Below are positions 6,159-57,625 of a DNA stretch of 64,000 nt, in pieces. Position numbers and translations under genes: made by a program. Numbering within the stretch: the stretch's first letter is position 1; the number at the start of each line of letters is the position of its first letter. The notes beneath the pieces are model-generated. The model was not told the origin of the DNA. It searched no databases and was given only the letters and a program-made list of their open reading frames with translations. The stretch comes from a virus: IMG/VR virus record IMGVR_UViG_3300045988_098456; one strand, written 5' to 3'.

Positions 6159-6476
6159 ATGATAGACGATAAGAAAATAGAAGGAGCCGCAAGAAGATAC
6201 AGCAAAGTGACGGATTGTGATAATGAAGAAGCCTTATTAATTGAAGAAGGCTTTAAGGAAGGTGCTGAGTGGGCTATCAATGATTTCTTGAAGAACTTGT
6301 GGCATCAAACAAATAAGGAGCCAGAAGGATATGATGAATGGATATTGCTGCACTATAATGTAGGCAACTATTATTCATTAGCTCAAGTCAAAGAATTCAA
6401 GTCTTGGAAAGGATTTGTTGAGAATATGCCTATAGACGGGTGGCTCTATATTGATGATTTATTCTCAAAGGAATGA
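6159..6476 (+). CDS. hypothetical protein, MIDDKKIE family (105 aa)
   Basis: Start moved to MIDDKKIEG by analogy with paralog 44082..44474 (shared AxWAINxxLKxLWH, WLYIDDL). Confidence 0.6.
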   Translation: MIDDKKIEGAARRYSKVTDCDNEEALLIEEGFKEGAEWAINDFLKNLWHQTNKEPEGYDEWILLHYNVGNYYSLAQVKEFKSWKGFVENMPIDGWLYIDDLFSKE

Positions 6477-6481
6477 GGTGA

Positions 6482-6661
6482 ATGCAAATGACCGATGCAG
6501 AATTTAATAAGTTTGTGCTTATGCTAGAGAACGAAGCGTTTCGGTTTTCGAGAAGCCAAAACGAATTTAAGGAACATCGAGTAGTGATAGAACAGTCTTT
6601 CAAGATAGGAGGGATGTTCATTCTTCGAGAGTTGGAAAAGTATTTTAATCAAAAGAAGTAA
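6482..6661 (+). CDS. hypothetical protein (59 aa)
   Basis: Hand-translated. Confidence 0.45.
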   Translation: MQMTDAEFNKFVLMLENEAFRFSRSQNEFKEHRVVIEQSFKIGGMFILRELEKYFNQKK

Positions 6662-6665
6662 GCGT

Positions 6666-6803
6666 ATGATATTATATGATAATCAATGTTTTGAGCTTTT
6701 AAAAGCTCTGTGTTATAGTGTTCCACAGAATCCAAATGTCGGTAGGTTTGAGATTGCAAACGTTATACTTGACACATTACAAAAAATAAAAGATGCGGAT
6801 TAA
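6666..6803 (+). CDS. hypothetical protein (45 aa)
   Basis: Hand-translated; TAAGCGTATG junction at the start, stop inside cassette g. Confidence 0.4.
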   Translation: MILYDNQCFELLKALCYSVPQNPNVGRFEIANVILDTLQKIKDAD

Positions 6804-6833
6804 CAGCTTTCGGGCACAAATTTAAAGATAATG
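6800..6833 (+). repeat. start-associated cassette, copy g
   Basis: TTAACaGCTTTCGGGCAcAAAtttAAAGATAATG. Confidence 0.55.
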
Positions 6834-7007
6834 ACAAAGGAAGAAATATTGGAAAAGGCATCTGATTTTGAGGATGAAGATGAGTTTGTGAAGTGTGATA
6901 GATTGCCGTTCACTGAAGAATTGTGGCTTTTACATCAGCTAGTGTATATCGGCTTGTCTTGCACCTATACAGGTCGTGGCTATATAATTGAAAAACTTAA
7001 AGATTAG
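6831..7007 (+). CDS. hypothetical protein (58 aa)
   Basis: Hand-translated; ATG from cassette g. Confidence 0.45.
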   Translation: MTKEEILEKASDFEDEDEFVKCDRLPFTEELWLLHQLVYIGLSCTYTGRGYIIEKLKD

Positions 7008-9713: not shown

Positions 9714-9971
9714 ATGAAAGTATATGTAGTAATATCTTCATACCAACATGGACTGGGTGAGGCAGTTGAGGTTGACGCAGAAGTCTTCTCTACCATAGAT
9801 AAGGCAAGAAAAGCGATAAGACACAAAGGGATGAACACTTTGGAGAATTACAAGCGAGTTTTGAATTGCGATGATTATCTATACAATATCTCAGATTCTT
9901 TCTTCCATATCTCAGACAGCGAAGGTGAGACGTGGGATAATTTCGATATTGTAGAACAAGAATTAAAGTAA
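9714..9971 (+). CDS. hypothetical protein (85 aa)
   Basis: Track ORF. Confidence 0.6.
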   Translation: MKVYVVISSYQHGLGEAVEVDAEVFSTIDKARKAIRHKGMNTLENYKRVLNCDDYLYNISDSFFHISDSEGETWDNFDIVEQELK

Positions 9972-9978
9972 TATAGTT

Positions 9979-10227
9979 ATGAAGATTAATGAAATCAAAA
10001 ATATCTTAGATTATGCAAAGGAGTGTGGTCGTCTAGTAACAATTACACTTGTAAGTGGGCAAGTGTCTCATATAAACTTCAGTAAGAAAACAAAGACGTT
10101 TACTGCTACAGATGATGTAATCTTAGACGTAGAGGGACATCTTGTGATAAAATATGATACGGATGGAAGTATAGATTACATTGATAGCGATTCCATCATT
10201 CGCATATTTAGTAAAGAATGTGTTTAA
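9979..10227 (+). CDS. hypothetical protein (82 aa), tandem paralog 1
   Basis: Same length and similar hydrophobic pattern as 10247..10495. Confidence 0.6.
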   Translation: MKINEIKNILDYAKECGRLVTITLVSGQVSHINFSKKTKTFTATDDVILDVEGHLVIKYDTDGSIDYIDSDSIIRIFSKECV

Positions 10228-10246
10228 CAATTGATTAGATAAGAAT

Positions 10247-10495
10247 ATGGATGCAGGTCATGTGAATGTGATATTAGGCGAAGCCGAGGACAAAGGTCTT
10301 AGAGGAAGTATCAACTTGGTAGGTGGAGCAAAGATAAGTTTCGACTTCAATAGTGTTGGTGTTGAAACCTCTTTCAATTGCAATACAAAGAACAGAACAC
10401 TTATGATTGGAAGTGGAAGTACAGTAGTGTTTACACGTAAATATATTGATTGTAGCTCTATCCAGTATATTGAAGTGTTTGAACGTACAAAATAA
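10247..10495 (+). CDS. hypothetical protein (82 aa), tandem paralog 2
   Basis: Track ORF. Confidence 0.6.
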   Translation: MDAGHVNVILGEAEDKGLRGSINLVGGAKISFDFNSVGVETSFNCNTKNRTLMIGSGSTVVFTRKYIDCSSIQYIEVFERTK

Positions 10496-10512
10496 TTATA
10501 GGAGACAAGAAT

Positions 10513-10797
10513 ATGAATATACTAGACTATTATGAGGTTGTCACCTCAAAGATTTTCAAGTTGGAAAGCATGAACGAGGGGCTTGTATTGATAGCACCGG
10601 AGCAGGAGGTAGATGGAGTCCGTTCCTTGATGGTGGGACTATATGTGCCAGAGCATGAACGATACAAAATGTATACTTTCCGTTCCTCTATGAACGAGGG
10701 TGAACTTGGTGACAAGTATAAGGCAATGGTCGGCACGATGGATGTGCTTAAACCGGATTGGGACAGAATCTCAAAGAAAAGACTGAAGAGGATCTAA
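10513..10797 (+). CDS. hypothetical protein (94 aa)
   Basis: Track ORF. Confidence 0.6.
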   Translation: MNILDYYEVVTSKIFKLESMNEGLVLIAPEQEVDGVRSLMVGLYVPEHERYKMYTFRSSMNEGELGDKYKAMVGTMDVLKPDWDRISKKRLKRI

Positions 10798-18857: not shown

Positions 18858-18889
18858 TTTGGTAGAGTGGAATATAATAGTTATCTTTG
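18858..18889 (+). promoter_or_regulatory. promoter TTTG-N20-TATCTTTG
   Basis: Exact consensus; lies over the TTG start of the track ORF, so the CDS start is moved. Confidence 0.7.
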
Positions 18890-18916
18890 GGGTCGAATTT
18901 CAAAACTTATAAGGAT

Positions 18917-19813
18917 ATGAAGATATTAGAACCGAGATATGAAATCCTATCCCAAGGCAAGGGCATGGATGGAGTTTATAAACAGATAGAGTTGTGCGGT
19001 CGCACATGTTATGCGTCAAGTATGAAGATAGATAAAGACAGCGCAAAGCCTTTCGTTGAGCGTATGGTAAGCAGCAATCATCTTGCCATGTGTGAACATG
19101 GAACAATTTATCTCCATGTTGCTTACGATAATGACTTCTTTGTTCCGGAGTCTCTACTGGTCAAGCACTATCGTGAGAACAAATATTCAAAGGTGATGCA
19201 GATTGGCAGCGACTACTATATCACAACTAACTACAGAGTGATAGTTGAAAATAACTGGTTTGAGGATTTGGACTATATTTGCGAGCCTACGGAATGGCAT
19301 GAGAAGCGAATAACAGTCCGATTTACTACACAGATTGCAGTAAGTAGAGAGGCTAACAGACATCGTGTAGATTCCGTAGCGGAACAAAGCACTAGATATT
19401 GCAACTATAGTAAGGATAAGTTCGGAGGCGAGATTGCTATCAACAAACCAAAGTGGGTTAGTGATGATGATACGGTTAATCCATTGTCTTTTGATGGTGG
19501 AACATTTGTTGACCTATCAAAGAACATCGGTAGTTATGAGCATTGGAGTCCGGTAGAGAAATGGTGGTTTGCCAATAGAGTATGTGAAATGATGTATTTG
19601 TCTTTGGTTAAGGATGATGGTTTGAAACCACAAGATGCGAGAACTATTCTTCCTCTTGATACCAATACGGAGCTGATTCATACCGCATTCGTGAGTGATT
19701 GGCTTCATTTCTTCGATTTGCGCTCAAAGGGAACTACCGGAAAGCCACATCCTGATATTGAGGTCTTGGCAACCCCATTGATGAAAGAGTTCAAGGAACG
19801 AGGTTTTATTTAA
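18917..19813 (+). CDS. thyX: flavin-dependent thymidylate synthase ThyX
   Basis: ThyX signature REANRHRVDSVAEQSTRY (RHRxxSxxxxSxR); start at the first ATG after the promoter. Confidence 0.9.
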   Translation: MKILEPRYEILSQGKGMDGVYKQIELCGRTCYASSMKIDKDSAKPFVERMVSSNHLAMCEHGTIYLHVAYDNDFFVPESLLVKHYRENKYSKVMQIGSDYYITTNYRVIVENNWFEDLDYICEPTEWHEKRITVRFTTQIAVSREANRHRVDSVAEQSTRYCNYSKDKFGGEIAINKPKWVSDDDTVNPLSFDGGTFVDLSKNIGSYEHWSPVEKWWFANRVCEMMYLSLVKDDGLKPQDARTILPLDTNTELIHTAFVSDWLHFFDLRSKGTTGKPHPDIEVLATPLMKEFKERGFI

Positions 19814-19819
19814 TCGCTT

Positions 19820-20290
19820 ATGAAGAAGAAAGCCAAGCAAATAGCCAAGGTGATGAGCAATGACTCTTTGGAGGTTGTTGCTCAGATGATTGTTGATGAG
19901 GCAAAAGGCGTGCGCTATGAGGTGTATGCCGATGGTTCTAGCAAGAAAGATAAGTGTGGTTGCGGTTGGCTTGTGCTTCATAAGGGAGCGATTATCAAAA
20001 GTGGGAAATATACATTTATCACAGCTAAAGTGAACGATTCGGTGAGAGCCGAAATAAGGGCGGTCATTCGTGCATTGGGTGATTGCCCTCTTTCATGTTC
20101 TGTTGATGTATATGTGGATTGCCAAGTAGCTATCGAAAGAATACAGGCATGCAAGTTAGGAGATTTGCAGCCTATATATAATAAGGTAGCGAAAGACAAG
20201 ACGATAAGATACCATTGGGTAAAGGCTCATAGAGGTAATATGTATAACGAAATGGTGGATTCTTTGGCTTTTTCTGCTACAGAAAGTTAA
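19820..20290 (+). CDS. ribonuclease H
   Basis: YADGSS...RAEIRAV...YVDCQ...HWVKAHRGNMYNEMVDSLA (DEDD RNase HI pattern). Confidence 0.85.
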   Translation: MKKKAKQIAKVMSNDSLEVVAQMIVDEAKGVRYEVYADGSSKKDKCGCGWLVLHKGAIIKSGKYTFITAKVNDSVRAEIRAVIRALGDCPLSCSVDVYVDCQVAIERIQACKLGDLQPIYNKVAKDKTIRYHWVKAHRGNMYNEMVDSLAFSATES

Positions 20291-20345: not shown

Positions 20346-20377
20346 TTTGCATATTTCAGATATTCTTTGTATCTTTG
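20346..20377 (+). promoter_or_regulatory. promoter TTTG-N20-TATCTTTG
   Basis: Exact consensus. Confidence 0.75.
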
Positions 20378-25060: not shown

Positions 25061-25133
25061 GCTGCATTAGACAAGTGGTTAAGTCGCCAGCTTTTCACGC
25101 TGGTATTCAAAGGTTCGAATCCTTTATGCAGTA
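25061..25133 (+). tRNA. tRNA-Glu (anticodon TTC)
   Basis: Hand-folded cloverleaf: acceptor GCTGCAT/ATGCAGT (G-T at 1-72), anticodon arm CCAGC-TTTTCAC-GCTGG, T arm AAAGG-TTCGAAT-CCTTT. Confidence 0.8.
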
Positions 25134-25139
25134 CTAAAT

Positions 25140-25210
25140 TGCCCTATGGTGTAATGGTAACACTACAGGTTTTGGTTCTGTCATTAGTGGTTCGAATCCA
25201 CTTGGGGCAA
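25140..25210 (+). tRNA. tRNA-Gln (anticodon TTG)
   Basis: Acceptor TGCCCTA/TGGGGCA, D arm GTGT-AATGGTA-ACAC, anticodon arm ACAGG-TTTTGGT-TCTGT, T arm AGTGG-TTCGAAT-CCACT. Confidence 0.8.
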
Positions 25211-25240
25211 CAAGATGGAATTGGTATATGTTCCACACAA

Positions 25241-25325
25241 GGTGCGATATTCAAGCGGTTAAAGAAGATAGACTGTAAATCTATTCCCATTGTGGGTTCG
25301 GTGAGTTCGAATCTCCCTTGCACCA
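25241..25325 (+). tRNA. tRNA-Tyr (anticodon GTA), long variable arm
   Basis: Acceptor GGTGCGA/TTGCACC, anticodon arm ATAGA-CTGTAAA-TCTAT, 15-nt variable arm; one T-C mismatch in the T stem. Confidence 0.75.
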
Positions 25326-25347
25326 CGAGTAACTTTTGTCGATTACG

Positions 25348-32941: not shown

Positions 32942-33325
32942 ATGAGCAAGGCAAGTAAATTAGTTACGGATGCAATTCTTGGAGAAGACACCGTAACGAT
33001 AATCGTGAATGGAAGGGTTTATTACGTTTCACCACCAACTATTATAAAATTGGTCAAGGCGGCTAAATACCTTGACTGTTTCGAAGAGTGCAATACCTTA
33101 GCGGAAGTCTTAGGCATTCTTAAGAATTTGAATGATGCTTGTAAGGCGTTGTCCGTATTCATACAAGGCGATGAATCCATTAGTGAAGAATTATCTAAAG
33201 GAACGCTTGAAGAGGTTGTCAATGGCTTACAAATGGCTTATTCCTTAATCTCTATAAAGGATTTTCAGACGCTATCAATTTTGGCGAAGAGTGCGGCAAG
33301 GATGATAGCAAAACCACGACCATAG
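32942..33325 (+). CDS. tail assembly chaperone (G-like)
   Basis: Position after the tube gene plus an overlapping start-less -1 frame ORF. Confidence 0.5.
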   Translation: MSKASKLVTDAILGEDTVTIIVNGRVYYVSPPTIIKLVKAAKYLDCFEECNTLAEVLGILKNLNDACKALSVFIQGDESISEELSKGTLEEVVNGLQMAYSLISIKDFQTLSILAKSAARMIAKPRP

Positions 33326-33516
33326 GTAACGATACACTCTTAGGGCAGATTGCATCTTTTATGGATAGTCTGCACTTATCTTACCAAGAAGTAGTAAAAG
33401 AGATACCTTATAGAAACTTATTGCTGATGGCAAAAGACAAGCAAAGAGTAGCATGTGGTGATGTAATGTATGAGGTAACGGAAGAAGAGTTTGGAATGAA
33501 CTTCAAAAAAGGATAA
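33211..33516 (+). CDS. -1 frame extension (T-like); could also be a separate 51-aa ORF from ATG 33361
   Basis: -1 frame is open from 33211 with no ATG for 50 codons and overlaps the G-like ORF by 115 nt. Confidence 0.4.
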   Translation, partial: RGCQWLTNGLFLNLYKGFSDAINFGEECGKDDSKTTTIGNDTLLGQIASFMDSLHLSYQEVVKEIPYRNLLLMAKDKQRVACGDVMYEVTEEEFGMNFKKG

Positions 33517-33557
33517 GTTTAAAATAATGCAAATAAAGTATTAAAAGCACTAAAACA

Positions 33558-33589
33558 TTTGCAAGTTAGCGAGATATTTTTTATCTTTG
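33558..33589 (+). promoter_or_regulatory. promoter TTTG-N20-TATCTTTG
   Basis: Exact consensus. Confidence 0.75.
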
Positions 33590-33643
33590 CAAGCGCAGAA
33601 CAAAAAAGGATAAAATGGCGATTTAAGAAATTGATAAGATATT

Positions 33644-33730
33644 AGAGACACGAAACCCGATGGACTATACCGAAAGGCAGTCCGAGTCACTATTCCTTTG
33701 ACTTTGCAATCGGTAGTTTCGTGTTTTTGT
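33644..33730 (+). ncRNA. three-way-junction leader RNA ending in a U-run (attenuator or riboswitch-like)
   Basis: P1 33648-33661/33709-33724 (14 bp, 2-nt bulge), P2 33662-33683 with GAAA tetraloop, P3 33685-33703, then TTTTTGTGTTT. Confidence 0.55.
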
Positions 33731-33742
33731 GTTTAAAATAAG

Positions 33743-34045
33743 ATGCAAGACGTAAGGTTGATATTTGAGATACTGGTTTCTATGTTGCTTTGCGTTTGTC
33801 TCATATTGCTTGCTGTAAGTAGATATAGGCAAAAGAAAAAGCGTGAAGAACCGGAGCGAAAGGAAATGGACTTGATAGACTTCTTTTCTTTGGGAGGAGT
33901 TGCCTATTATTGGAACAAAGGTGGTAAGCAGCAGAAATGCTACACATACGAAGAATTTCTGAAAATCAAGGCTGACTACGTGGAGCTTTGGTTGAATCAG
34001 AACAGATATATTTTTAACTCTCAATTAGATTGCGATGATATATAG
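33743..34045 (+). CDS. small membrane protein (100 aa)
   Basis: LIFEILVSMLLCVCLILLAVS TM segment followed by a basic stretch. Confidence 0.55.
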   Translation: MQDVRLIFEILVSMLLCVCLILLAVSRYRQKKKREEPERKEMDLIDFFSLGGVAYYWNKGGKQQKCYTYEEFLKIKADYVELWLNQNRYIFNSQLDCDDI

Positions 34046-34265
34046 AGTATTTGTTTTGTTGCCGACAATAGTTGTATCAGATGGCATTGTTGGTATAGCT
34101 TGGCTAGGAAAGGTTTTTAGCTTGCGATATGGAAAGAACAAGAAAAAGAGCAAGAATGTATCCTTAATGATAGGATATAACACAGGAATGTCTCTTAAGT
34201 CGAAAATAGACGATAACGCTGCGGATGATTATTTAAGACGCATTGCCGAAGAAAACAGAATCTAA
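34035..34265 (+). CDS. small protein with N-terminal hydrophobic segment (76 aa)
   Basis: Track ORF. Confidence 0.45.
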   Translation: MIYRVFVLLPTIVVSDGIVGIAWLGKVFSLRYGKNKKKSKNVSLMIGYNTGMSLKSKIDDNAADDYLRRIAEENRI

Positions 34266-34269
34266 ATTC

Positions 34270-34289
34270 AAGGGTTAGAAACCCTTTTT
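34270..34289 (+). terminator. rho-independent terminator
   Basis: AAGGGTT-AGA-AACCCTT followed by TTT. Confidence 0.65.
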
Positions 34290-34358
34290 ACAACCATATT
34301 ACTTGTGGTTATTTTTATACATCGGTTTTTATTAACGATTGTTTTTTATGGTAGATAA

Positions 34359-35465
34359 ATGTATAAAAACGAGCACAAGTTCCCTTATAGATGGACTAAA
34401 AAAGATGCTAATTTCACAAAAGACAAAGGTAAGGTGATGTCTTGCTTTTGTTGTGGAGGTGGAAGTTCCTTTGGTTACAAACTAGCTGGCTACGATGTTG
34501 TAGCCTGTAATGAGATAGACCCAAAGGTTATGAAGATGTACTTGAAGAATCACGATGTCAAGTATTCTTTCAATTGTGATATTCGTGAGTTGATTGCCAA
34601 TATCAATATGGGGGGGCATATTATGAAAGAAGAATTGCATAATCTGGATATATTGGATGCTAGTTTCCCTTGTTCGGTATTCAGTATTGCAGGTGATCGT
34701 GAAAAGGCTTGGGGAAAGGAAAAAGTATTCAGAGAAGGTCAGAAGGCACAAAGGCTTGACGATTTGGCTTTCTACTCTATCGACCTCGCTAAAGAACTAA
34801 AGCCAAAGGTAGTTGTTTTTGAGAATGTCCAAGGTTTGTTACAAGGTGAAGCTGTCGAGTACGTAAAAGAGATTTATAAGCAGATGGATGATGCCGGATA
34901 TATCTTGCAACATTGGCTTCTCAATGCACGTAACATGGGTGTTCCTCAAAACAGACCTAGGGTGTTTTTTATCGGGTTACGTAAAGACCTTTGCGAGCCG
35001 TTTATGGTTCAGAAGGATTTATTCGAGCGAGTGCCTAAGATTGATATGGACTTTAATGAGAAAGAAATTGTCTTGGATGAGTTTTCTGACTATAGTGGAA
35101 GACAGATTCCTAAAGGAGTGATGAAGTATTGGGTGCATAGAAATGAGAAAGATAATTCTATCGGTGATATTGTCAAGCGGATGGATAATCGTCTTTCTAT
35201 GTTTAATAATATGTTTCTTAAAAAGAATAAGGTATGCAATACTATATCAGCAATGGAAGATAGGCTTGTGTATTTTGATAATCCAAGCTATATTTCTGCG
35301 CATGATACGATTTTAGCATCAACATTTCCTGAAGATTATGATTTCGATGGCATGAAGCCTTGGTTTGCTTGCGGAATGTGTGTTCCTCCAGTTATGATGG
35401 CTAATGTTGCTACGAGAATCTGGGATTGTTGGTTATCAAAGATTAAAAAGGAGGAATGCGCATGA
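34359..35465 (+). CDS. DNA (cytosine-5) methyltransferase
   Basis: FCCGGGSSFG (motif I), FPCSVFS (IV), FENVQGL (VI), QNRPRVFF (VIII), GMCVPP (X). Confidence 0.9.
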   Translation: MYKNEHKFPYRWTKKDANFTKDKGKVMSCFCCGGGSSFGYKLAGYDVVACNEIDPKVMKMYLKNHDVKYSFNCDIRELIANINMGGHIMKEELHNLDILDASFPCSVFSIAGDREKAWGKEKVFREGQKAQRLDDLAFYSIDLAKELKPKVVVFENVQGLLQGEAVEYVKEIYKQMDDAGYILQHWLLNARNMGVPQNRPRVFFIGLRKDLCEPFMVQKDLFERVPKIDMDFNEKEIVLDEFSDYSGRQIPKGVMKYWVHRNEKDNSIGDIVKRMDNRLSMFNNMFLKKNKVCNTISAMEDRLVYFDNPSYISAHDTILASTFPEDYDFDGMKPWFACGMCVPPVMMANVATRIWDCWLSKIKKEECA

Positions 35466-36199
35466 TAACAGCAAGTATGACTTCGGGTGATATACGTAGA
35501 GTACGAAACTTAGATGAAGCTAGAATCTATGAGTTTCAGATGCGAAAAGCTAATGAGCTTAAACGTGAAATGAGAAAGCAGAACGTAAGGCAAATAACAA
35601 AGACCTTTGAGTTTGCTACACCGAATGCCGATTATTTCATCGTTGTCGGTGTAAAACATGGCGATGTATTTGCTTCTGGTGTGTTCATTTATCTGAAGGA
35701 AACCAACGAGTATATTCCTATGAGTAGAAACGAGGGGTATAGCGAAGATTGTTTTGCTATGAGCGTTCATTTTCTGAAGAGATTTGCAGAAAGGTTTTTG
35801 AAAAAAGACTTACCGATTGCCAAGATATTGCAAAAGATATATACATCGTTTACAGGTGCGGTTCAGCTCTATAGTGATGGCAAGACAAGAAGGGTGGTAT
35901 TTGCAATTCCGGAAGGGCTTATACTCACAGAATACGAGCAAGAAAAGCATATCATCCACTACAAAACCTTTGTAAGCATGGATATGCTAAAGAAGACACA
36001 GAAGCGAAGTTACGAGAAGATAAGTGCATTTCTCATGGAGTCTTGTCAGCAAATAGCTAAAGCAAGAGAAACCGGAAATGACGAAAGGCTGTGCGTTGTG
36101 TACAGAAGGTTTTACAATGATATTGATTTGCTAGATACAAAGGAGGCGCAAGCCATATATTCAAGTTTCTTTGAAAAAGGAGGTAACAATGAAAGATAA
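35456..36199 (+). CDS. hypothetical protein (247 aa)
   Basis: Track ORF inside the modification island. Confidence 0.6.
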   Translation: MRMITASMTSGDIRRVRNLDEARIYEFQMRKANELKREMRKQNVRQITKTFEFATPNADYFIVVGVKHGDVFASGVFIYLKETNEYIPMSRNEGYSEDCFAMSVHFLKRFAERFLKKDLPIAKILQKIYTSFTGAVQLYSDGKTRRVVFAIPEGLILTEYEQEKHIIHYKTFVSMDMLKKTQKRSYEKISAFLMESCQQIAKARETGNDERLCVVYRRFYNDIDLLDTKEAQAIYSSFFEKGGNNER

Positions 36200-36692
36200 A
36201 TGTATAACAAGGTTTCTTGGTGATATAAAGCCTATAAAGAATTACGAAAGGTATTATGTTAGCAAGCTGGGACATGTTTTTACTATTGGGAGAACGTCTC
36301 AATTAAAGGAAATCGCTCCTTGCAAGACACCAAAAGGTTATCTGAAGGTATGGCTTTACAAGAATGGAAAGCGCAAGATGTTTTATATCCATCGTTTGGT
36401 AGCTCAGGCTTTCTTGGAGAATCCAGAAGCGTTGCCGATGGTGAATCATAAGGATTTCGACAAGACGAATAATGATGTAGACAACTTGGAGTATTGCACC
36501 GCAAGATACAATGTGATTTATTCTGCTATAGCAAAGAAAACATCTTCCGAATACTTGGGTGTGACTTGGAATAAGAGTGTAAGAAAATGGCAAGCGCAGT
36601 ATCAGATAGGTAAAAAGAAAATATATATAGGTTGCTTTGATACGCAACAAGAGGCTCATGAAGCTTATGTTAACGCTATAAAAGAGATTTGA
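36171..36692 (+). CDS. HNH homing endonuclease with AP2 DNA-binding domain
   Basis: YIHRLVAQAF...VNHKDFDKTNNDVDNLEY (HNH_3-like) and YLGVTWNKSVRKWQAQ...GCFDTQQEAHEAY (AP2). Confidence 0.75.
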   Translation: MKKEVTMKDKCITRFLGDIKPIKNYERYYVSKLGHVFTIGRTSQLKEIAPCKTPKGYLKVWLYKNGKRKMFYIHRLVAQAFLENPEALPMVNHKDFDKTNNDVDNLEYCTARYNVIYSAIAKKTSSEYLGVTWNKSVRKWQAQYQIGKKKIYIGCFDTQQEAHEAYVNAIKEI

Positions 36693-36693
36693 T

Positions 36694-37407
36694 ATGCTTG
36701 AATTTGATAGAATATACAATTCCGACTGCATAGAAGGAATGAAACAAATAGAGAGCGGGAAAGTAGATTTAATTGTTACTGACCCACCATATTGTATCTC
36801 CTATAAGACGGGATGGAGAGCAGACGACCATCGTTTTTCGAAGGAAATACTCAATGACGATAATGAGCAATTGATTATTGATTATATGAGCGAATGCTAC
36901 CGGATTTTGAAGGATGATAGTGCTGCTTATATCTTCTGTAGTGCAAAGACCTTGGACTTTTTTATGCAACAAGCGAGGAACGCAGGGTTTACCATTAAGA
37001 ATGTGATAATTTGGCGAAAGAACAACCATACGGCTGGAGATTTAGATGCGCAATATGGTCAATGTTACGAGCCAATCCTGTACTTAAATAAAGGCAGACG
37101 AATCATAAACGGAAAGCGTTTGGAGGATGTGTGGGACTTTGATAGAGTTCCATCAGATAAATTGGTACATCAGAACGAGAAACCAATCCCCTTGCTTATG
37201 CAATGTATCTTGAAATCATCGAACGAAGGAGATTTGGTGTTTGATGGCTTTATGGGCAGCGCAAGTACTGCTCTGGCTTGTATGCGGACAAATCGGAATT
37301 ACCTTGGTTTTGAATTGGATGAGGATTATTTCAATGTGGCACAAAGAAGAATTAAGGAAGAAATGTTAAATCAAAAAGATATGTTTGGATATGCTGGAGT
37401 TAAATAG
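36694..37407 (+). CDS. beta-class N6A/N4C DNA methyltransferase (canonical DPPY)
   Basis: DLIVTDPPY then C-terminal VFDGFMGSASTALAC. Confidence 0.85.
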   Translation: MLEFDRIYNSDCIEGMKQIESGKVDLIVTDPPYCISYKTGWRADDHRFSKEILNDDNEQLIIDYMSECYRILKDDSAAYIFCSAKTLDFFMQQARNAGFTIKNVIIWRKNNHTAGDLDAQYGQCYEPILYLNKGRRIINGKRLEDVWDFDRVPSDKLVHQNEKPIPLLMQCILKSSNEGDLVFDGFMGSASTALACMRTNRNYLGFELDEDYFNVAQRRIKEEMLNQKDMFGYAGVK

Positions 37408-38107
37408 AATTTATCAAGGTGATTGTCGAAAGCTTTTAAAGCTGATTGATAGTGATAGCATAGACCTCGTATGTTCTGATGTGGCTTATCCTGTTCAGTC
37501 TAGGGGTGGCTCAGGGAGTATGGGAGGATATTGGACGGAATCTCAAACAAGAAAGGGCAAGATATTCAAGAATAACGATATTGATATTTCGGACTACATC
37601 AATGATTTGTACCGGATATTAAAGGACAGGTCGCATTGCTATCTGATGTGTAATGATTATAATTTAATGCACTTTCTTGATGTGGTCGGAAAAAGTGAGT
37701 TCCATTTTACCAAATGCTTAATATGGGATAAGTGCGCAAAAATATGTGGCCGCTATTATATGGCACAGAAAGAGTATATCATCATGCTACGCAAAGGTAG
37801 TGATAGGCCGATAAATGAATGTGGTACGTCTGACATTCTGAGTGTTCCTATTCCAACCAACAAGCGCAAGGATAAGGATGGTTTGATTAATCAGACTGAA
37901 AAACCTGTAAAGTTGATGGAGACATTAATCAGAAACTCGACAAATGTTGGTGATGTTGTTCTAGACCCATTCATGGGGAGCGGTACAACGGCAAGAGCTT
38001 GCGTAAACCTTGAAAGAAAGTATATAGGTTTTGAGATAGACCAGCGACAAGTCGATTTTGCCAATAACGAATTAAAGAACATGAGTAGGCAATTAAGTCT
38101 TTTTTAA
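37385..38107 (+). CDS. beta-class DNA methyltransferase paralog with DVAY in place of DPPY
   Basis: DLVCSDVAYP; VLDPFMGSGTTARAC. Confidence 0.7.
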   Translation: MDMLELNRIYQGDCRKLLKLIDSDSIDLVCSDVAYPVQSRGGSGSMGGYWTESQTRKGKIFKNNDIDISDYINDLYRILKDRSHCYLMCNDYNLMHFLDVVGKSEFHFTKCLIWDKCAKICGRYYMAQKEYIIMLRKGSDRPINECGTSDILSVPIPTNKRKDKDGLINQTEKPVKLMETLIRNSTNVGDVVLDPFMGSGTTARACVNLERKYIGFEIDQRQVDFANNELKNMSRQLSLF

Positions 38108-38117
38108 AACTATTGGT

Positions 38118-38336
38118 ATGTGCAAGGTGTTTTGTTGTAATCCTGTTGTAAGAAATGGGAATAAAGAAACAACGGATGCTCTTATAAGAGCTATGAGAGG
38201 CGAAGCCTTAAAACGAGGGTTGGTACGTGATGAATTGATAGGTTTTTGCAACCGATTCTTGAGAGAAGGCGAAATCAAAGCTTGTATAGAGCATTCGCTA
38301 GATAATTTCAAACGTTATTTTTGGAGGTATCATTGA
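38118..38336 (+). CDS. hypothetical protein (72 aa)
   Basis: Track ORF. Confidence 0.45.
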   Translation: MCKVFCCNPVVRNGNKETTDALIRAMRGEALKRGLVRDELIGFCNRFLREGEIKACIEHSLDNFKRYFWRYH

Positions 38337-38337
38337 T

Positions 38338-38967
38338 ATGAGAAGAAGAAAGTTGAACAAGTCTCCAGTGCTAGGCTTCTGCGGATTTGTTATCGGTTAC
38401 GAATGCAAGGAAAAGGGAATAAAGCTGATGGAGTGCGATAAGGCGCAAGCAGATGCAATCATAGTTCCTCATCACTTTTCACACAAGGTAACGAAGAATA
38501 GTTGCTTGAATCTTTTGGTATTGTATAAGGATAAGATAAGTGGTGCAATGCAAATAGGGTATGGAATCCGACCGCACATCAAGACTGAAAAGTGCGAAGT
38601 GTTGGATTACCATCAAGTGAGGGAATTTGACAGAATGTGGTTGTCTGATGATATGCCAAAGTTTAGCGAGACGATTTGCCTATCTCTCTTGCATAAGTAT
38701 ATTAGGGCAACACATAAGGAAATCAAGTACCTTATTTCTTATGCCGATACGTCCATAGGTAACAAGGGAACTATATATAAAGCTGCAAACTATGAGCATA
38801 TTGATACCATTAAGGCAGATTTCTATGTGTTACCAAGTGGTGAGCGTGTGCATCCGGTTACTATGTGGCATCGGCACAAGACAAGAGCATGGGAGGTTCT
38901 GACGGAACTATACCCAGGAATAAAAAAGGCAGAAGGGTTTCAACTTAAATTTCTGAAGAAGTTATGA
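38338..38967 (+). CDS. Mom-like acyltransferase-fold DNA modification protein (candidate)
   Basis: PHHFSH, REFDRMWL and LISYADTSIGNKGTIYKAANY resemble the Mu Mom family blocks as I remember them. Confidence 0.5.
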   Translation: MRRRKLNKSPVLGFCGFVIGYECKEKGIKLMECDKAQADAIIVPHHFSHKVTKNSCLNLLVLYKDKISGAMQIGYGIRPHIKTEKCEVLDYHQVREFDRMWLSDDMPKFSETICLSLLHKYIRATHKEIKYLISYADTSIGNKGTIYKAANYEHIDTIKADFYVLPSGERVHPVTMWHRHKTRAWEVLTELYPGIKKAEGFQLKFLKKL

Positions 38968-39182
38968 AGAAAAGAAATAAATATATTCCTTGTCATTTGC
39001 ATCCAGATCCTGAGCATTGGGTTAGAAAAGGTCAATCTTGGAAGGCGAAGGTCGCTTATGAAAGCGAGGATGATGCTTGGGAGTTTCTGAATCAGAATCC
39101 GAAGTTACGGGCACAAGGTATGGCGGTGTATCGGTGTAGGATATGCAACAAATATCATATATGGCACAAGAATAACAAATAA
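38964..39182 (+). CDS. small zinc-ribbon protein (72 aa)
   Basis: PCHLHP...CRICNKYH; ATGA overlap with the Mom-like gene. Confidence 0.5.
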   Translation: MKKRNKYIPCHLHPDPEHWVRKGQSWKAKVAYESEDDAWEFLNQNPKLRAQGMAVYRCRICNKYHIWHKNNK

Positions 39183-39197
39183 AAAATATAAACAGCA

Positions 39198-39479
39198 ATG
39201 ATAGTAATAAAAATCAAAACATGGAAAGACTGGAAGAAGGACTTTCTTGATTGGGTGCAAGCACCTAGGCGCAGTACTTGCAAGGAGTACGTAGATTATA
39301 TGGAGGCTTTACAAAATCAGGTTCTCTACAAAATAATAAACGACACTTGCGATAAATACGGAAATATGCGTGAGGATCAAATTCAAGACATCACCGAGGC
39401 AGTCGAGAGATGCGTTGCTGAGTGTGCCAAAGAAACACGCAAGTTAATCGATGAATGTCAGCCCGCAAAATTATTCTAA
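39198..39479 (+). CDS. hypothetical protein (93 aa)
   Basis: Track ORF. Confidence 0.55.
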   Translation: MIVIKIKTWKDWKKDFLDWVQAPRRSTCKEYVDYMEALQNQVLYKIINDTCDKYGNMREDQIQDITEAVERCVAECAKETRKLIDECQPAKLF

Positions 39480-39541
39480 GACTGCAACTTTCATTACACT
39501 GCCGTGAAATTGTTTAACTGATAGATTTAAAACAACAAAGT

Positions 39542-40234
39542 ATGATAGAACTGAATAAGAAAAGTATGATAGAACAGAATAAGATATATAATGAAGATTG
39601 CCTAGAAGGAATGAAAAGGATTCCTGACGGGAGCGTAGATTGCATAGTGACGGATATACCCTACAATGAATGCAATCGTACCGACAACGGTCTAAGGAAC
39701 TTAGATAAGGATAAAGCAGACATCGGAATATTTGATGTTGCTATGCTGACAGAAAATCTATGCGAAAAGACCAAAGGCAGTATCTATATGTTTTGCGGTT
39801 TTAATCAAGTTTCTACTATTCGGCAAGCTATGTCACAAAAAGGTCTGAGCACAAGAATTGTCGTATGGGAGAAAACGAATCCATCGCCTATGAATGGTTC
39901 GGTTATTTGGCTAAGTGGAGTTGAGTTGTGCGTTTATGGTAAAAAGCAAGGCGCAACATTCAATTTCCATTGTAAGAACACCGTTTTCAGATACCCTTGT
40001 GGGGGGGGTAAAATTCATCCAACACAGAAGCCAGTGGAGTTGATGTCACAGCTAATAGCTGCAAGTACAAAAGAAGGCGATACCGTCTTAGACCCATTCA
40101 TAGGCAGCGGCACTACCGCTATCGCTTGCATCCGTGAGAAGCGCAATTTTATCGGTTTTGAACTGAACAAGGAATATTACGACAAGGCTTGCAAGCGTAT
40201 TCGTTTAGAACAAGCGCAGCCTGTGTTATTTTAA
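39542..40234 (+). CDS. beta-class DNA methyltransferase paralog with DIPY motif
   Basis: DCIVTDIPYNE; VLDPFIGSGTTAIAC. Confidence 0.8.
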   Translation: MIELNKKSMIEQNKIYNEDCLEGMKRIPDGSVDCIVTDIPYNECNRTDNGLRNLDKDKADIGIFDVAMLTENLCEKTKGSIYMFCGFNQVSTIRQAMSQKGLSTRIVVWEKTNPSPMNGSVIWLSGVELCVYGKKQGATFNFHCKNTVFRYPCGGGKIHPTQKPVELMSQLIAASTKEGDTVLDPFIGSGTTAIACIREKRNFIGFELNKEYYDKACKRIRLEQAQPVLF

Positions 40235-40253
40235 ATCATAAATAGTTGAGATT

Positions 40254-40640
40254 ATGAAAAAAGAAGATAGACTTAAAATATATCGCAAATACGATGGGCA
40301 TTGTGCTTATTGTGGCAAGAGTATAGAGTATAAGGATATGCAGGTTGACCATCTTGTTCCGAAGAATCGAGGTTGTTACTCTCGGTGGAGCGACAAGGAG
40401 GGAAAGTTTGTAGTATTTCATGGCGATGATTGCATGGAGAACTATATGCCATCTTGCAGGTCTTGTAACCTTCGTAAGCGTGATATGAGTTTGGAACAAT
40501 TTCGCTCAGAGATTACAAGACAGGCTAAAGGATTGCTTAATGGCAAAGCTTCTTTTCAGGTAAAGATGTCGCTAGCTTATGGTTTAATCGAAGAGCACTT
40601 TGATAGACAAATTGAGTTCTACTTTGAGAAATTTAAATAG
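40254..40640 (+). CDS. HNH endonuclease
   Basis: CAYCGK...VDHLVPKN...CRSCNLRK. Confidence 0.8.
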   Translation: MKKEDRLKIYRKYDGHCAYCGKSIEYKDMQVDHLVPKNRGCYSRWSDKEGKFVVFHGDDCMENYMPSCRSCNLRKRDMSLEQFRSEITRQAKGLLNGKASFQVKMSLAYGLIEEHFDRQIEFYFEKFK

Positions 40641-40648
40641 TTGAGAAT

Positions 40649-40933
40649 ATGAAGAAGTTTAAGAAGTCGATAGAGATTAGCACTGAGAATATTTCAGACG
40701 TTCTTCAAGTGCCAATTGTTACAAGTTTATACAAGACTAAGAATTTTAAAAATCCTTGTCTTGAAGGTCGTAGCGTTCCTTATGATACTATAGCATTGAT
40801 GTATGTTCATATCGAAGGCTTTGATAGCGATTTTTGTATTGACCAAGGCGACATTCTCGCTCTTGATATTTGTGATACTTGGTATGCTTTTTCGAGGAAA
40901 GGATGGGAAGAACATAAAAACGATGAGGTATGA
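40649..40933 (+). CDS. hypothetical protein (94 aa)
   Basis: Track ORF. Confidence 0.5.
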   Translation: MKKFKKSIEISTENISDVLQVPIVTSLYKTKNFKNPCLEGRSVPYDTIALMYVHIEGFDSDFCIDQGDILALDICDTWYAFSRKGWEEHKNDEV

Positions 40934-41340
40934 AGATGAAAGGATATTACGAATACGACCAGCCAATTTACCCACACTTATTGTGTGTTGGGGTTGGGTT
41001 GCAGTTTGAGGATGCAAAGAAAGCATTCTTGAATAATGATGGTACGGATATTGAAAAGTACGATTTTTTAAATGGTGATGGATTTACTTATTACGGACTT
41101 CACATAAGAGAAACAGGAAGAAAGTGCGTTCTTGTTTTATTCAGTAGCAGTAAGGCTATGCGTATGAATGTAATTTGTCATGAGGCTAGTCACGCTTGCG
41201 ATGCTATCGAGGGTAATATTGAAATGGAACATGGTGGAGAACCATCTGCTTATCTGATAGGTTGGATAGCATCATGTATCAATAAGGCTCGTTTGGGAAT
41301 TGGAGATTTCGTTGAAATCGTAGATAAGGAAGAAAAATAG
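40930..41340 (+). CDS. putative zinc metallopeptidase (HEXXH)
   Basis: VICHEASHACD motif. Confidence 0.5.
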   Translation: MKMKGYYEYDQPIYPHLLCVGVGLQFEDAKKAFLNNDGTDIEKYDFLNGDGFTYYGLHIRETGRKCVLVLFSSSKAMRMNVICHEASHACDAIEGNIEMEHGGEPSAYLIGWIASCINKARLGIGDFVEIVDKEEK

Positions 41341-41369: not shown

Positions 41370-41413
41370 CCCCATCACTATATATATAGTAATGTAGTGG
41401 TGGGGATTTTTTT
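41370..41413 (+). terminator. rho-independent terminator
   Basis: CCCCATCACT-N16-AGTGGTGGGG followed by T7. Confidence 0.8.
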
Positions 41414-41483: not shown

Positions 41484-41515
41484 TTTGCATGTTTCAAATA
41501 TTATTTGTATCTTTG
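41484..41515 (+). promoter_or_regulatory. promoter TTTG-N20-TATCTTTG
   Basis: Exact consensus; flanks alignable with the 20.3-kb promoter. Confidence 0.75.
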
Positions 41516-57593: not shown

Positions 57594-57625
57594 CAAAGGT
57601 ACGAAGAATAATTCAATAATGCAAA
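57594..57625 (-). promoter_or_regulatory. leftward promoter TTTG-N20-TACCTTTG
   Basis: Plus-strand CAAAGGTA-N20-CAAA. Confidence 0.75.

Follow-up and report, generated by a model that had tools for sequence, protein, structure and literature searches.

A candidate anti-restriction operon of a human-gut phage whose methyltransferases may be tethered to the replication clamp

That a DNA methyltransferase (MTase) can ride the replication clamp is an established concept, illustrated by DNMT1. In this study we analysed a phage locus for which a bacterial counterpart of the eukaryotic DNMT1-PCNA pair is proposed. The locus lies in a stretch of 64,000 nucleotides (IMG/VR virus record IMGVR_UViG_3300045988_098456; the whole stretch is hereafter called the window) and consists of thirteen open reading frames (ORFs), g1 to g13, all on the plus strand between positions 34359 and 41340, with overlaps or gaps of 0–62 nt between neighbours. 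An earlier note on this DNA had described thirteen co-directional, tightly packed genes, among them a C5-cytosine MTase, three beta-class amino-MTases, a Mom-like protein, an HNH-AP2 endonuclease, an HNH nuclease, an HEXXH protein and five unknowns. All the genes are present where it had placed them, the assignments were confirmed by Pfam and PHROG profiles (by alignment for the HEXXH protein), and its reading of the locus as a DNA-modification island holds.

Natural clamp-binding motifs follow the pattern Q-phi-x-[L/M]-[F/L], as summarized in a 2024 review (PMC11139829), and protein C of phage Mu carries two functional clamp motifs, QPDLF and QHDLF (PMC12867686). The same review mentions no DNA MTase among the clamp partners, and the string 'methyl' is absent from it. 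We found no literature linking the clamp-binding motif to DNA MTases, although subscription literature was outside the search and an earlier description is possible.

The enzymes of the island also have well-described relatives. A 2026 study reports that Mom takes glycine from Gly-tRNA(Gly) and attaches it to the N6 of adenine in double-stranded DNA, the product rearranging to N6-carbamoylmethyl-adenine, and residues S124 and R151 are essential in Mu Mom (PMC13219725). SpCmoX of Synechococcus phage S-B43 (8YF3) is a DNA cytosine C5-carboxymethyltransferase; the diagnostic features of CmoX are the motif SPPC and R350, an arginine that stands where M.HhaI has N304 and to which the carboxylate of carboxy-S-adenosylmethionine (carboxy-SAM) is bound (PMC12783734). 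Clusters of several MTases with Mom are known anti-restriction equipment. As arrays of orphan MTases and Mom are both well known in phages, and as tandem MTases occur in deposited phage genomes, the island itself is of an ordinary kind, and its description in the earlier note as an unusually dense arsenal was overstated: Fusobacterium phage phiKSUM, like the present phage, has several MTases in its genome, with three adjacent MTase coding sequences, and in Staphylococcus phage St1.CM a second MTase coding sequence lies ∼200 nt downstream of the first. What may stand out is the presence of apparently unreported tails on several MTase folds, a CmoX-related C5 enzyme devoid of the arginine, and the conserved motif variants DVAY and DIPY. 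The relationship to CmoX, the degenerate motif IV, the tails, the variability of the MTase cassettes and the avoidance of restriction sites are all points beyond the earlier note.

Clamp-binding-like tails of the methyltransferases

The three beta-class MTase genes are:

36694..37407, plus strand: g4, beta-class amino-MTase with the motif DPPY (PF01555, E 2e-38)
37385..38107, plus strand: g5, beta-class amino-MTase with the motif DVAY (PF01555, E 2.9e-30)
39542..40234, plus strand: g10, strain-specific cassette encoding a beta-class amino-MTase with the motif DIPY (PF01555, E 3.4e-32)

Every beta-class MTase of the island carries a terminal Qxx[L/M]F peptide past its catalytic fold. As clamp-binding motif (CBM) we scored Q-phi-x-[L/M]-[F/L] where the segment is terminal or exposed; for conservation, 85 related loci were compared, 80 being called sister loci. 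The g5 protein ends with RQLSLF, and its pentapeptide (QLSLF, nt 38090–38104), present in 81 of 81 loci, is the exact QL[SD]LF consensus of clamp-binding proteins such as Pol II, Pol IV, Hda and MutS. The motif of the MTase tails is located at the extreme C-terminus, which is also its place in Pol II and Pol IV. The g10 protein ends with AQPVLF (QPVLF, nt 40217–40231). In g4, the peptide is QKDMF (aa 227–231, nt 37372–37386), seven residues from the end; its core, QKDMFGY, is near-invariant over 83 loci, whereas the adjoining residues vary. With a non-aliphatic residue at position 2, the g4 and g10 peptides resemble QPDLF of Mu protein C and the internal QADMF of E. coli Pol III alpha. An additional beta-class MTase, x1 (246 aa, motif DPPY), which is inserted between g4 and g5 in ∼20% of the relatives (GenBank MT835576 is one such locus), ends with KQDSLF. 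These tails lie outside the fold that the beta-MTases share with M1.HpyAVI (5hek), and the solved homologues, in contrast to g4, g5 and g10, are devoid of a C-terminal Qxx[L/M]F extension.

The distribution of the tail follows that of the MTases. In the window, it was found on just the three beta-MTases out of 321 six-frame ORFs of at least 60 aa. In the 85 loci, 182 of 2442 ORFs of at least 100 aa are tailed, and each of these is an MTase or an MTase fragment. A second, independent set of 80 loci was recruited with g10 and contains 97 tailed ORFs among 2059: 92 of the 101 beta-MTase ORFs bear the tail versus 5 of the 1958 others (Fisher p = 1.8e-142), and most of the 9 tailless beta-MTase ORFs look truncated. 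Control families gave no tail in 119 homologues of g13 and 150 representatives of g1, and a single one in 76 homologues of g2. Among the g5 homologues, the motif is found inside the last 15 residues in 72 of 120 proteins, and most of the others end with LTLF, LRLF or QQLTFL-type variants. The peptide is also found on other MTase folds, as the more distant Prevotella-bin contig L085 encodes PF00145, PF01555 and PF02384 proteins ending with QLSLF or QPTLF, the tail of the PF02384 protein coming after a K/P-rich linker. The clamp-like tail is widespread in human-gut Bacteroidota phages and is also found in Firmicutes phages: in two cultured ones, Streptococcus phage IPP34 and Lactococcus phage D4351, the MTases end with QLSLFDEV and QISLFDEV. 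It is absent from the checked MTase homologues of Fusobacterium (phiKSUM), Ruegeria and Staphylococcus phages.

Similar peptides were noted elsewhere. An internal QKDLF in g1 (aa 218–222) was discarded as a clamp motif because it is not conserved in the clade. The small g9 protein ends with CQPAKLF, which is like the MTase tails with one extra residue; it may represent either a clamp-like tail that has degenerated or a scar left by recombination during cassette exchange. On contig L173, a 183-aa ORF (6305–6856) ends with IQLSLF and has a DIPY motif; it resembles the C-terminal portion of an MTase but has no Pfam match and was not counted as one. It might be a piece of an enzyme from a further MTase class with the same tail.

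We consider it slightly more probable than the contrary that the island is a modification operon directed against restriction and that its MTases are held on the replication clamp, the tethering being inferred from the tails. The more general proposition, that phage MTases of several folds ride the host clamp through a C-terminal peptide and thereby couple protective methylation to the fork, we place just short of an even chance. In such a mechanism, the QLSLF, QPVLF and QKDMF peptides would dock the MTases on the beta clamps left on newly replicated DNA, and methylation would trail the fork, shortening the time during which nascent phage DNA is unprotected. The operon would then mark the phage DNA after replication, at several short motifs, with a C5-cytosine substituent, amino-methylation and a Mom-type adenine, and host restriction would be blocked.

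The tail is relevant to a puzzle, as restriction enzymes are present beforehand and fresh phage DNA needs fast methylation. If it binds the clamp, DNA methyltransferases would be added to the clients of the bacterial sliding clamp, and the strongly conserved terminal peptide of hundreds of metagenomic MTases would be explained. Tail deletion or peptide competition could then weaken the protection of phages and mobile elements, and the peptide could serve as a tag in tools that label DNA in step with the fork.

The modification enzymes

The beta-class MTases g4, g5 and g10 match PF01555 with 133, 106 and 113 bits, respectively (cut-off 26.7), and are circularly permuted, motif IV being located at aa 30, 32 and 38 and motif I (FxGxG) at aa 186, 196 and 186. 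They share this fold and motif order with the orphan beta-class MTases of phages (PF01555; M1.HpyAVI, 5hek; CcrM, 6pbd) and are, as these are, small and without a separate target-recognition domain. As their mutual identity is just 28–34%, the three enzymes probably recognise different short motifs, at which they would methylate exocyclic amino groups (yielding N6-methyladenine or N4-methylcytosine).

By reference to the canonical motif IV, (D/N/S)-P-P-(Y/F/W), two of the enzymes are unusual, and with DVAY and DIPY they differ from the orphan beta-class MTases to which they were compared. DVAY is present in the close homologues of g5 and DPPY in the distant ones, with DVPY, DPAY and DSPY as intermediates; DIPY of g10 aligns with DPPY of M1.HpyAVI (5hek). 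Because the aspartate and the tyrosine are retained and the variants are conserved inside their own clades, we argue that DVAY and DIPY may be functional.

The C5-cytosine enzyme and the Mom-family enzyme, together with the small genes on both sides of the latter, are:

34359..35465, plus strand: g1, C5-cytosine MTase-family protein of a CmoX-related clade (PF00145, E 1.5e-41)
38118..38336, plus strand: g6, 72-aa ORFan abutting the Mom gene; no family match, close relatives only
38338..38967, plus strand: g7, Mom-family GNAT-fold DNA adenine modification enzyme (PF25680, E 8.6e-36)
38964..39182, plus strand: g8, 72-aa Cys/His ORFan, a possible zinc knuckle; ATGA overlap with Mom, translationally coupled

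The g1 protein (143.3 bits to PF00145, cut-off 22) has motif I as FCCGGGSS, motif IV as SFPC with the catalytic cysteine (aa 102–105), motif VI as ENV (155) and motif VIII as QNRPR (197). Its best solved relative is SpCmoX (8YF3), with an E value of 1e-35 over the full length, versus only 1e-16 for M.HaeIII, and the two proteins belong to one phage clade, whose typical motif IV is SPPC. However, g1 differs from SpCmoX by SFPC in place of SPPC and by a methionine at the position of R350: its motif X is Gly-Met (CGMCVPP, M340) instead of the canonical Gly-Asn, whose Asn (N304 in M.HhaI) contacts the cofactor, or the Gly-Arg of CmoX. A role as carboxymethyltransferase was discarded on the basis of these two differences. 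An exhaustive search returned 13,603 relatives at E ≤0.001, and among the 117 alignable sequences of the top 150 cluster representatives motif X is GM in 104 and GR in 7; g1 is thus assigned by its motifs to a larger GM sister group and not to CmoX. As the carboxylate-binding arginine of CmoX is replaced by methionine, the donor is most likely SAM, from which g1 would add a methyl to the C5 of cytosine. The GM sub-clade, for which no donor is reported in the literature found, may depend on a donor that is neither SAM nor carboxy-SAM, a less likely novelty than clamp riding. A phage gene nearby for CmoA (the carboxy-SAM synthase) or for an amide ligase, CmoY, would speak for a CmoX; a tblastn search with an approximate E. 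coli CmoA query gave no match in the window, which is a weak test on a partial genome. The Met-bearing g1 and the DVAY and DIPY variants are cheap biochemical targets that would refine the rules by which function is assigned to MTase homologues.

The membership of g7 in the Mom family is solid by its Pfam and PDB matches: it matches PF25680 with 123.9 bits (cut-off 27.1) and Mu Mom (PDB 8bv8) with an E value of 4.7e-24, at 33.5% identity over 83% of g7. It retains the family-invariant residues H58, R111, D149, Y159 and H183; the first four are residues of the GNAT core and were invariant in an alignment of six sequences. At the position of Mu S124 it has a threonine, and both Ser and Thr are natural there (Thr in Enterococcus phage Q69); the position of R151 is occupied by Ser in g7 and by Asn in Corynebacterium phage Darwin. 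The C-terminus is shorter than that of Mu Mom, and its last 33 aa, compared with the helix-turn-helix-like insertion of Mu (175–209), are present and only poorly alignable. A chemistry identical to that of Mu Mom is likely, although not assured; if so, g7 would transfer glycine from Gly-tRNA(Gly) to the N6 of adenine and give N6-carbamoylmethyl-adenine as in Mu.

The genetic context of g7 differs from that of Mu Mom. The Mu gene stands alone at the genome end and its start is overlapped by the gene of Com, a zinc-finger regulator, whereas g7 is inside an MTase array in a phage of a Bacteroidota host and is flanked by unrelated small ORFs. These ORFs are absent beside more distant Mom genes. 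In particular, g8 was rejected as a Com-like regulator, as it has no homologue outside the lineage, distant Mom loci have other neighbours, and one of its cysteines is not conserved in locus L001; it matches PHROG 14788 weakly and no other phage family. On L085, a contig of a Candidatus Prevotella equi metagenome-assembled genome (MAG), a Mom-like gene is split over two overlapping frames (9959–10607), by a frameshift or an assembly error; an HNH gene and two genes for tailed MTases come next.

Cassette exchange, site avoidance and alternative readings

The remaining genes of the island are:

35456..36199, plus strand: g2, ORFan of 245–247 aa restricted to this phage lineage
36171..36692, plus strand: g3, NUMOD4-HNH_3-AP2 endonuclease (Pfam and PHROG)
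39198..39479, plus strand: g9, 93-aa accessory ORFan from the ORF list, in ∼45% of relatives
40254..40640, plus strand: g11, small free-standing HNH nuclease, CxxC...CxxC (PF01844; PHROG 2118, E 3.8e-36)
40649..40933, plus strand: g12, 94-aa ORFan without matches
40930..41340, plus strand: g13, small zincin-like protein with an HEXXH motif (HEASH), from an uncharacterised family that is widespread in phages

The core of the island is shared by over 80 nearly identical viral contigs from the human gut, and the order g1-g2-g3-g4-g5-g6-g7-g8-g11-g12-g13 is almost invariant in the compared loci. The other MTase genes vary: besides x1, individual genomes have further diverged beta-MTases at different slots, and g10 was found at ≥60% identity in none of the 80 sister loci, while relatives of it (38–96% identity) are encoded in many other gut viral contigs. 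This is a pattern of a fixed core with exchangeable MTase cassettes, as expected under shifting restriction pressure.

A second, independent anti-restriction strategy is apparent in the composition of the window. GATC is observed 12 times versus 237 expected, CGCG once versus 46.8 and GGCC 8 times versus 79; GGNCC, GGWCC and CCWGG are observed 1, 0 and 9 times, respectively. The remaining GATC and GGCC sites are scattered, several of them inside the island. Such extreme avoidance indicates that restriction pressure is real. The near-elimination of GATC, CGCG and GGCC would cover sites beyond the reach of the island enzymes, and the phage may thus respond in two ways that complement each other, by purging certain sites and by modifying others.

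The most serious alternative, which we nevertheless regard as unlikely, is that of an ordinary MTase and Mom island in which Qxx[L/M]F is a structural, dimerisation or other protein-protein handle and not a clamp ligand. The tail of the beta-MTases follows the last helix nearly without a linker, so that it could equally pack on the enzyme or on a dimer partner, and M1.HpyAVI, MboIIA and CcrM are dimeric beta-class MTases. Moreover, position 2 of the motif, for which an aliphatic residue is preferred, is often P, K or D, as it is in g4, g10 and x1, and clamp binding, as all the functions assigned to the island, is deduced from sequence. On the other hand, L085 bears the same pentapeptide on three MTase folds, once past a long K/P-rich linker, the peptide recurs on MTases of Firmicutes phages, g5 has the exact consensus while QPDLF is validated in Mu protein C, and the core of the motif is conserved where its flanks are variable. 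The points made for a structural tail weigh at the same time against a clamp-tethered anti-restriction operon, and several others do so too. The g1 clade and Mom are without the tail. The motif IV of g5 and g10 departs from the catalytic motif, and these two enzymes could be weakened or inactive; g7 is without R151, essential in Mu Mom, and without W48 and W181. The genes for terminase and portal, and perhaps further ones, are beyond the window, for which reason the window does not decide whether the phage has a clamp or a polymerase of its own. Finally, the avoidance of GATC, CGCG and GGCC shows that modification alone does not protect the genome.

Two further readings retain the modification enzymes but give them another purpose. 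In a restriction-modification or host-takeover module, g11 or g3 would cut unmodified DNA of the host or of competitors while the MTases and Mom would shield the phage DNA. The HNH gene g11 directly follows the MTase gene g10 in this strain and is conserved in most relatives, and very small HNH restriction enzymes, such as R.PacI, exist. However, g10 is absent, at ≥60% identity, from 80 of 80 sister loci while g11 persists, which disfavours such a module; a few relatives without g11 retain all the core MTases, PHROG 2118 groups phage HNH proteins of a generic kind, and no specificity domain is detectable. We therefore hold this reading to be very improbable. Slightly more doubtful still is that the MTases serve the physiology of the phage, by timing late transcription, recognising the packaging site or controlling replication, in the manner of the Dam sites at P1 pac and the Mu mom promoter. 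The location of the island within a plus-strand block downstream of the head genes would fit such a role, as would the invariance of the core MTases among relatives, since an arms race would predict turnover. Nevertheless, the accessory MTase cassettes do turn over, several chemistries are assembled in one operon together with Mom, which is dedicated to anti-restriction in Mu, and the strong site avoidance reflects real restriction pressure. Among these readings, we favour the anti-restriction operon with clamp-tethered MTases.

Transcription signals, remaining genes and the source phage

The signals surrounding the island are:

33558..33589, plus strand: Bacteroidota-type promoter, TTTGCA...N...TATCTTTG, likely start of the transcription unit of the island
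33590..33745, plus strand: structured leader of 156 nt with a terminal U-tract, terminator-like, upstream of two small ORFs
34270..34289, plus strand: weak hairpin and short U run bordering the island on the left, at best a terminator that leaks
41370..41413, plus strand: strong intrinsic terminator closing the operon
41484-41515, plus strand: following Bacteroidota-type promoter, downstream of the right terminator

The earlier note had seen no consensus promoter and had suggested expression by read-through. The first statement is true for sigma-70 only: a sigma-70 scan gave 41 matches versus 37 expected, which is chance level, and was set aside; it is irrelevant for this host. By contrast, the pattern TTTG-N15-24-TAnnTTTG has 13 matches in the window versus 5.05 expected, and its extended form TTTGCA..TAtCTTTG (the Bacteroidota −33/−7 promoter) is common to 5 sites. 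These near-identical promoters, TTTGCA(N)...TAtCTTTG, stand at the starts of transcription units, at 20346, 33558 and 41484 on the plus strand and at 57594 and 62551 on the minus strand. The one nearest to g1, at 33558–33589, is ∼770 bp upstream, and read-through fits this distance, the structured leader and the weak hairpin.

The leader (33590–33745) has a folding energy of −37.2 kcal/mol (z −3.63), a stability equalled by none of 200 shuffled sequences, and its sequence is 93–99% identical across 82 loci. A search of Rfam with 33300–34400, which includes the leader, matched no family. The leader RNA may be an attenuator controlling the operon. Two small conserved ORFs separate it from the hairpin at the left edge, which had been taken for the first of two flanking terminators; this hairpin (34270–34286) has 7 bp, folds to −6.9 kcal/mol (z −1.83) and is unlisted by the terminator scan, whereas the right terminator stands (41370–41405 in the scan; −22.4 kcal/mol, z −4.3). 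From the order promoter, leader, small ORFs, weak hairpin, thirteen genes and strong terminator, the island is most simply a single operon entered by read-through. Transcription would begin at the 33558 promoter, pass the structured leader and the weak hairpin, and end at the 41370 terminator.

The nucleases, the HEXXH protein and the ORFans appear to be passengers to which no role is assigned. The nucleases and the HEXXH protein had been counted in the anti-restriction arsenal, but nothing ties them to it. The domains predicted for g3 were found (HNH_3 with 27.9 bits and NUMOD4 with 23.8, both above the cut-off; AP2 with 27.8, under its cut-off of 33.3; PHROG 59 with E 2.1e-38); its start, placed at 36171, is most likely ATG 36189 and not TTG 36171. 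The gene occupies the same position in nearly all relatives covering it, including L083, whose Mom is an 85% relative of g7; its presence is fixed, not sporadic, and gives no hint of ongoing homing. Genes g2 and g3 overlap at 36171–36199 around the run GAAAAAGGAGG. In three database relatives, g2 and g3 are fused into proteins of 394–409 aa, and in another one g2 is fused to Mom (P0123, P0129, P0130 and P0173); these fusions could be indel errors, deletion variants or real frameshift products.

The unknown ORFs had been proposed as specificity or regulatory partners, for which we found no support. The 247-aa g2 protein has 76 homologues, all being the lineage's own protein or fragments of it, the full-length ones at least 62% identical, and its AF2 model is too poor to use (pLDDT 51). 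Permissive Pfam and NCBIfam scans of the five ORFans (g2, g6, g8, g9 and g12) gave noise only. In g13, the residues H84, E85, H88, E94 and H101 are invariant in 30 homologues. Its AF2 model is confident (pLDDT 88.9); it has no match in the PDB at E ≤0.001 and matches in BFVD many uncharacterised phage proteins at E 1e-9 and, weakly, SprT-like and PolyVal proteins (E 0.012–0.019). Its placement in a defined peptidase family was dropped on these grounds.

The source phage is common in the human gut: relatives of its Mom are encoded in 199 IMG/VR stretches, the best 80 being at least 97% identical to g7. It is a Bacteroidota siphophage, whose host is probably Prevotella or Segatella of the human gut. 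The assignment to Bacteroidota comes from the promoter type, the capsid relatives and the MAG bins: the nearest cultured relatives of the major capsid protein are those of Cellulophaga and Riemerella phages, and Mom loci, near-identical or related, are binned in Segatella copri and Candidatus Prevotella equi MAGs. One homologue of g13 is labelled Prevotella sp. MAG binning is weak evidence for a host, and all the host clues converge on the Prevotella/Segatella type.

Elsewhere, the window encodes a tape measure protein of 2091 aa, an S24-type repressor-like protein and, on the minus strand, a replication module that comprises helicase, DnaD-like loader and Erf-like protein. The structural block also contains, at 18887–20290 and directly following the tape measure gene, genes for a ThyX-type thymidylate synthase (PF02511) and an RNase H. 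At 26241–27176, an Amidoligase_2 gene (PF12224, E 3.6e-33) is followed by a class-II glutamine-amidotransferase-like gene; such pairs are recurrent in phages and their substrate is not established. No link of this pair (26241–27786) to g1 could be demonstrated, and Amidoligase_2 is considered unrelated to the CmoX context. Five tRNA genes are located at 25061–25496, for Glu, Gln, Tyr and Lys and one without assigned identity. The tRNA at 25347–25421 has an 8-nt anticodon loop scored as a four-base anticodon, 'tggt', and could be frameshift-suppressor-like or mis-scored.

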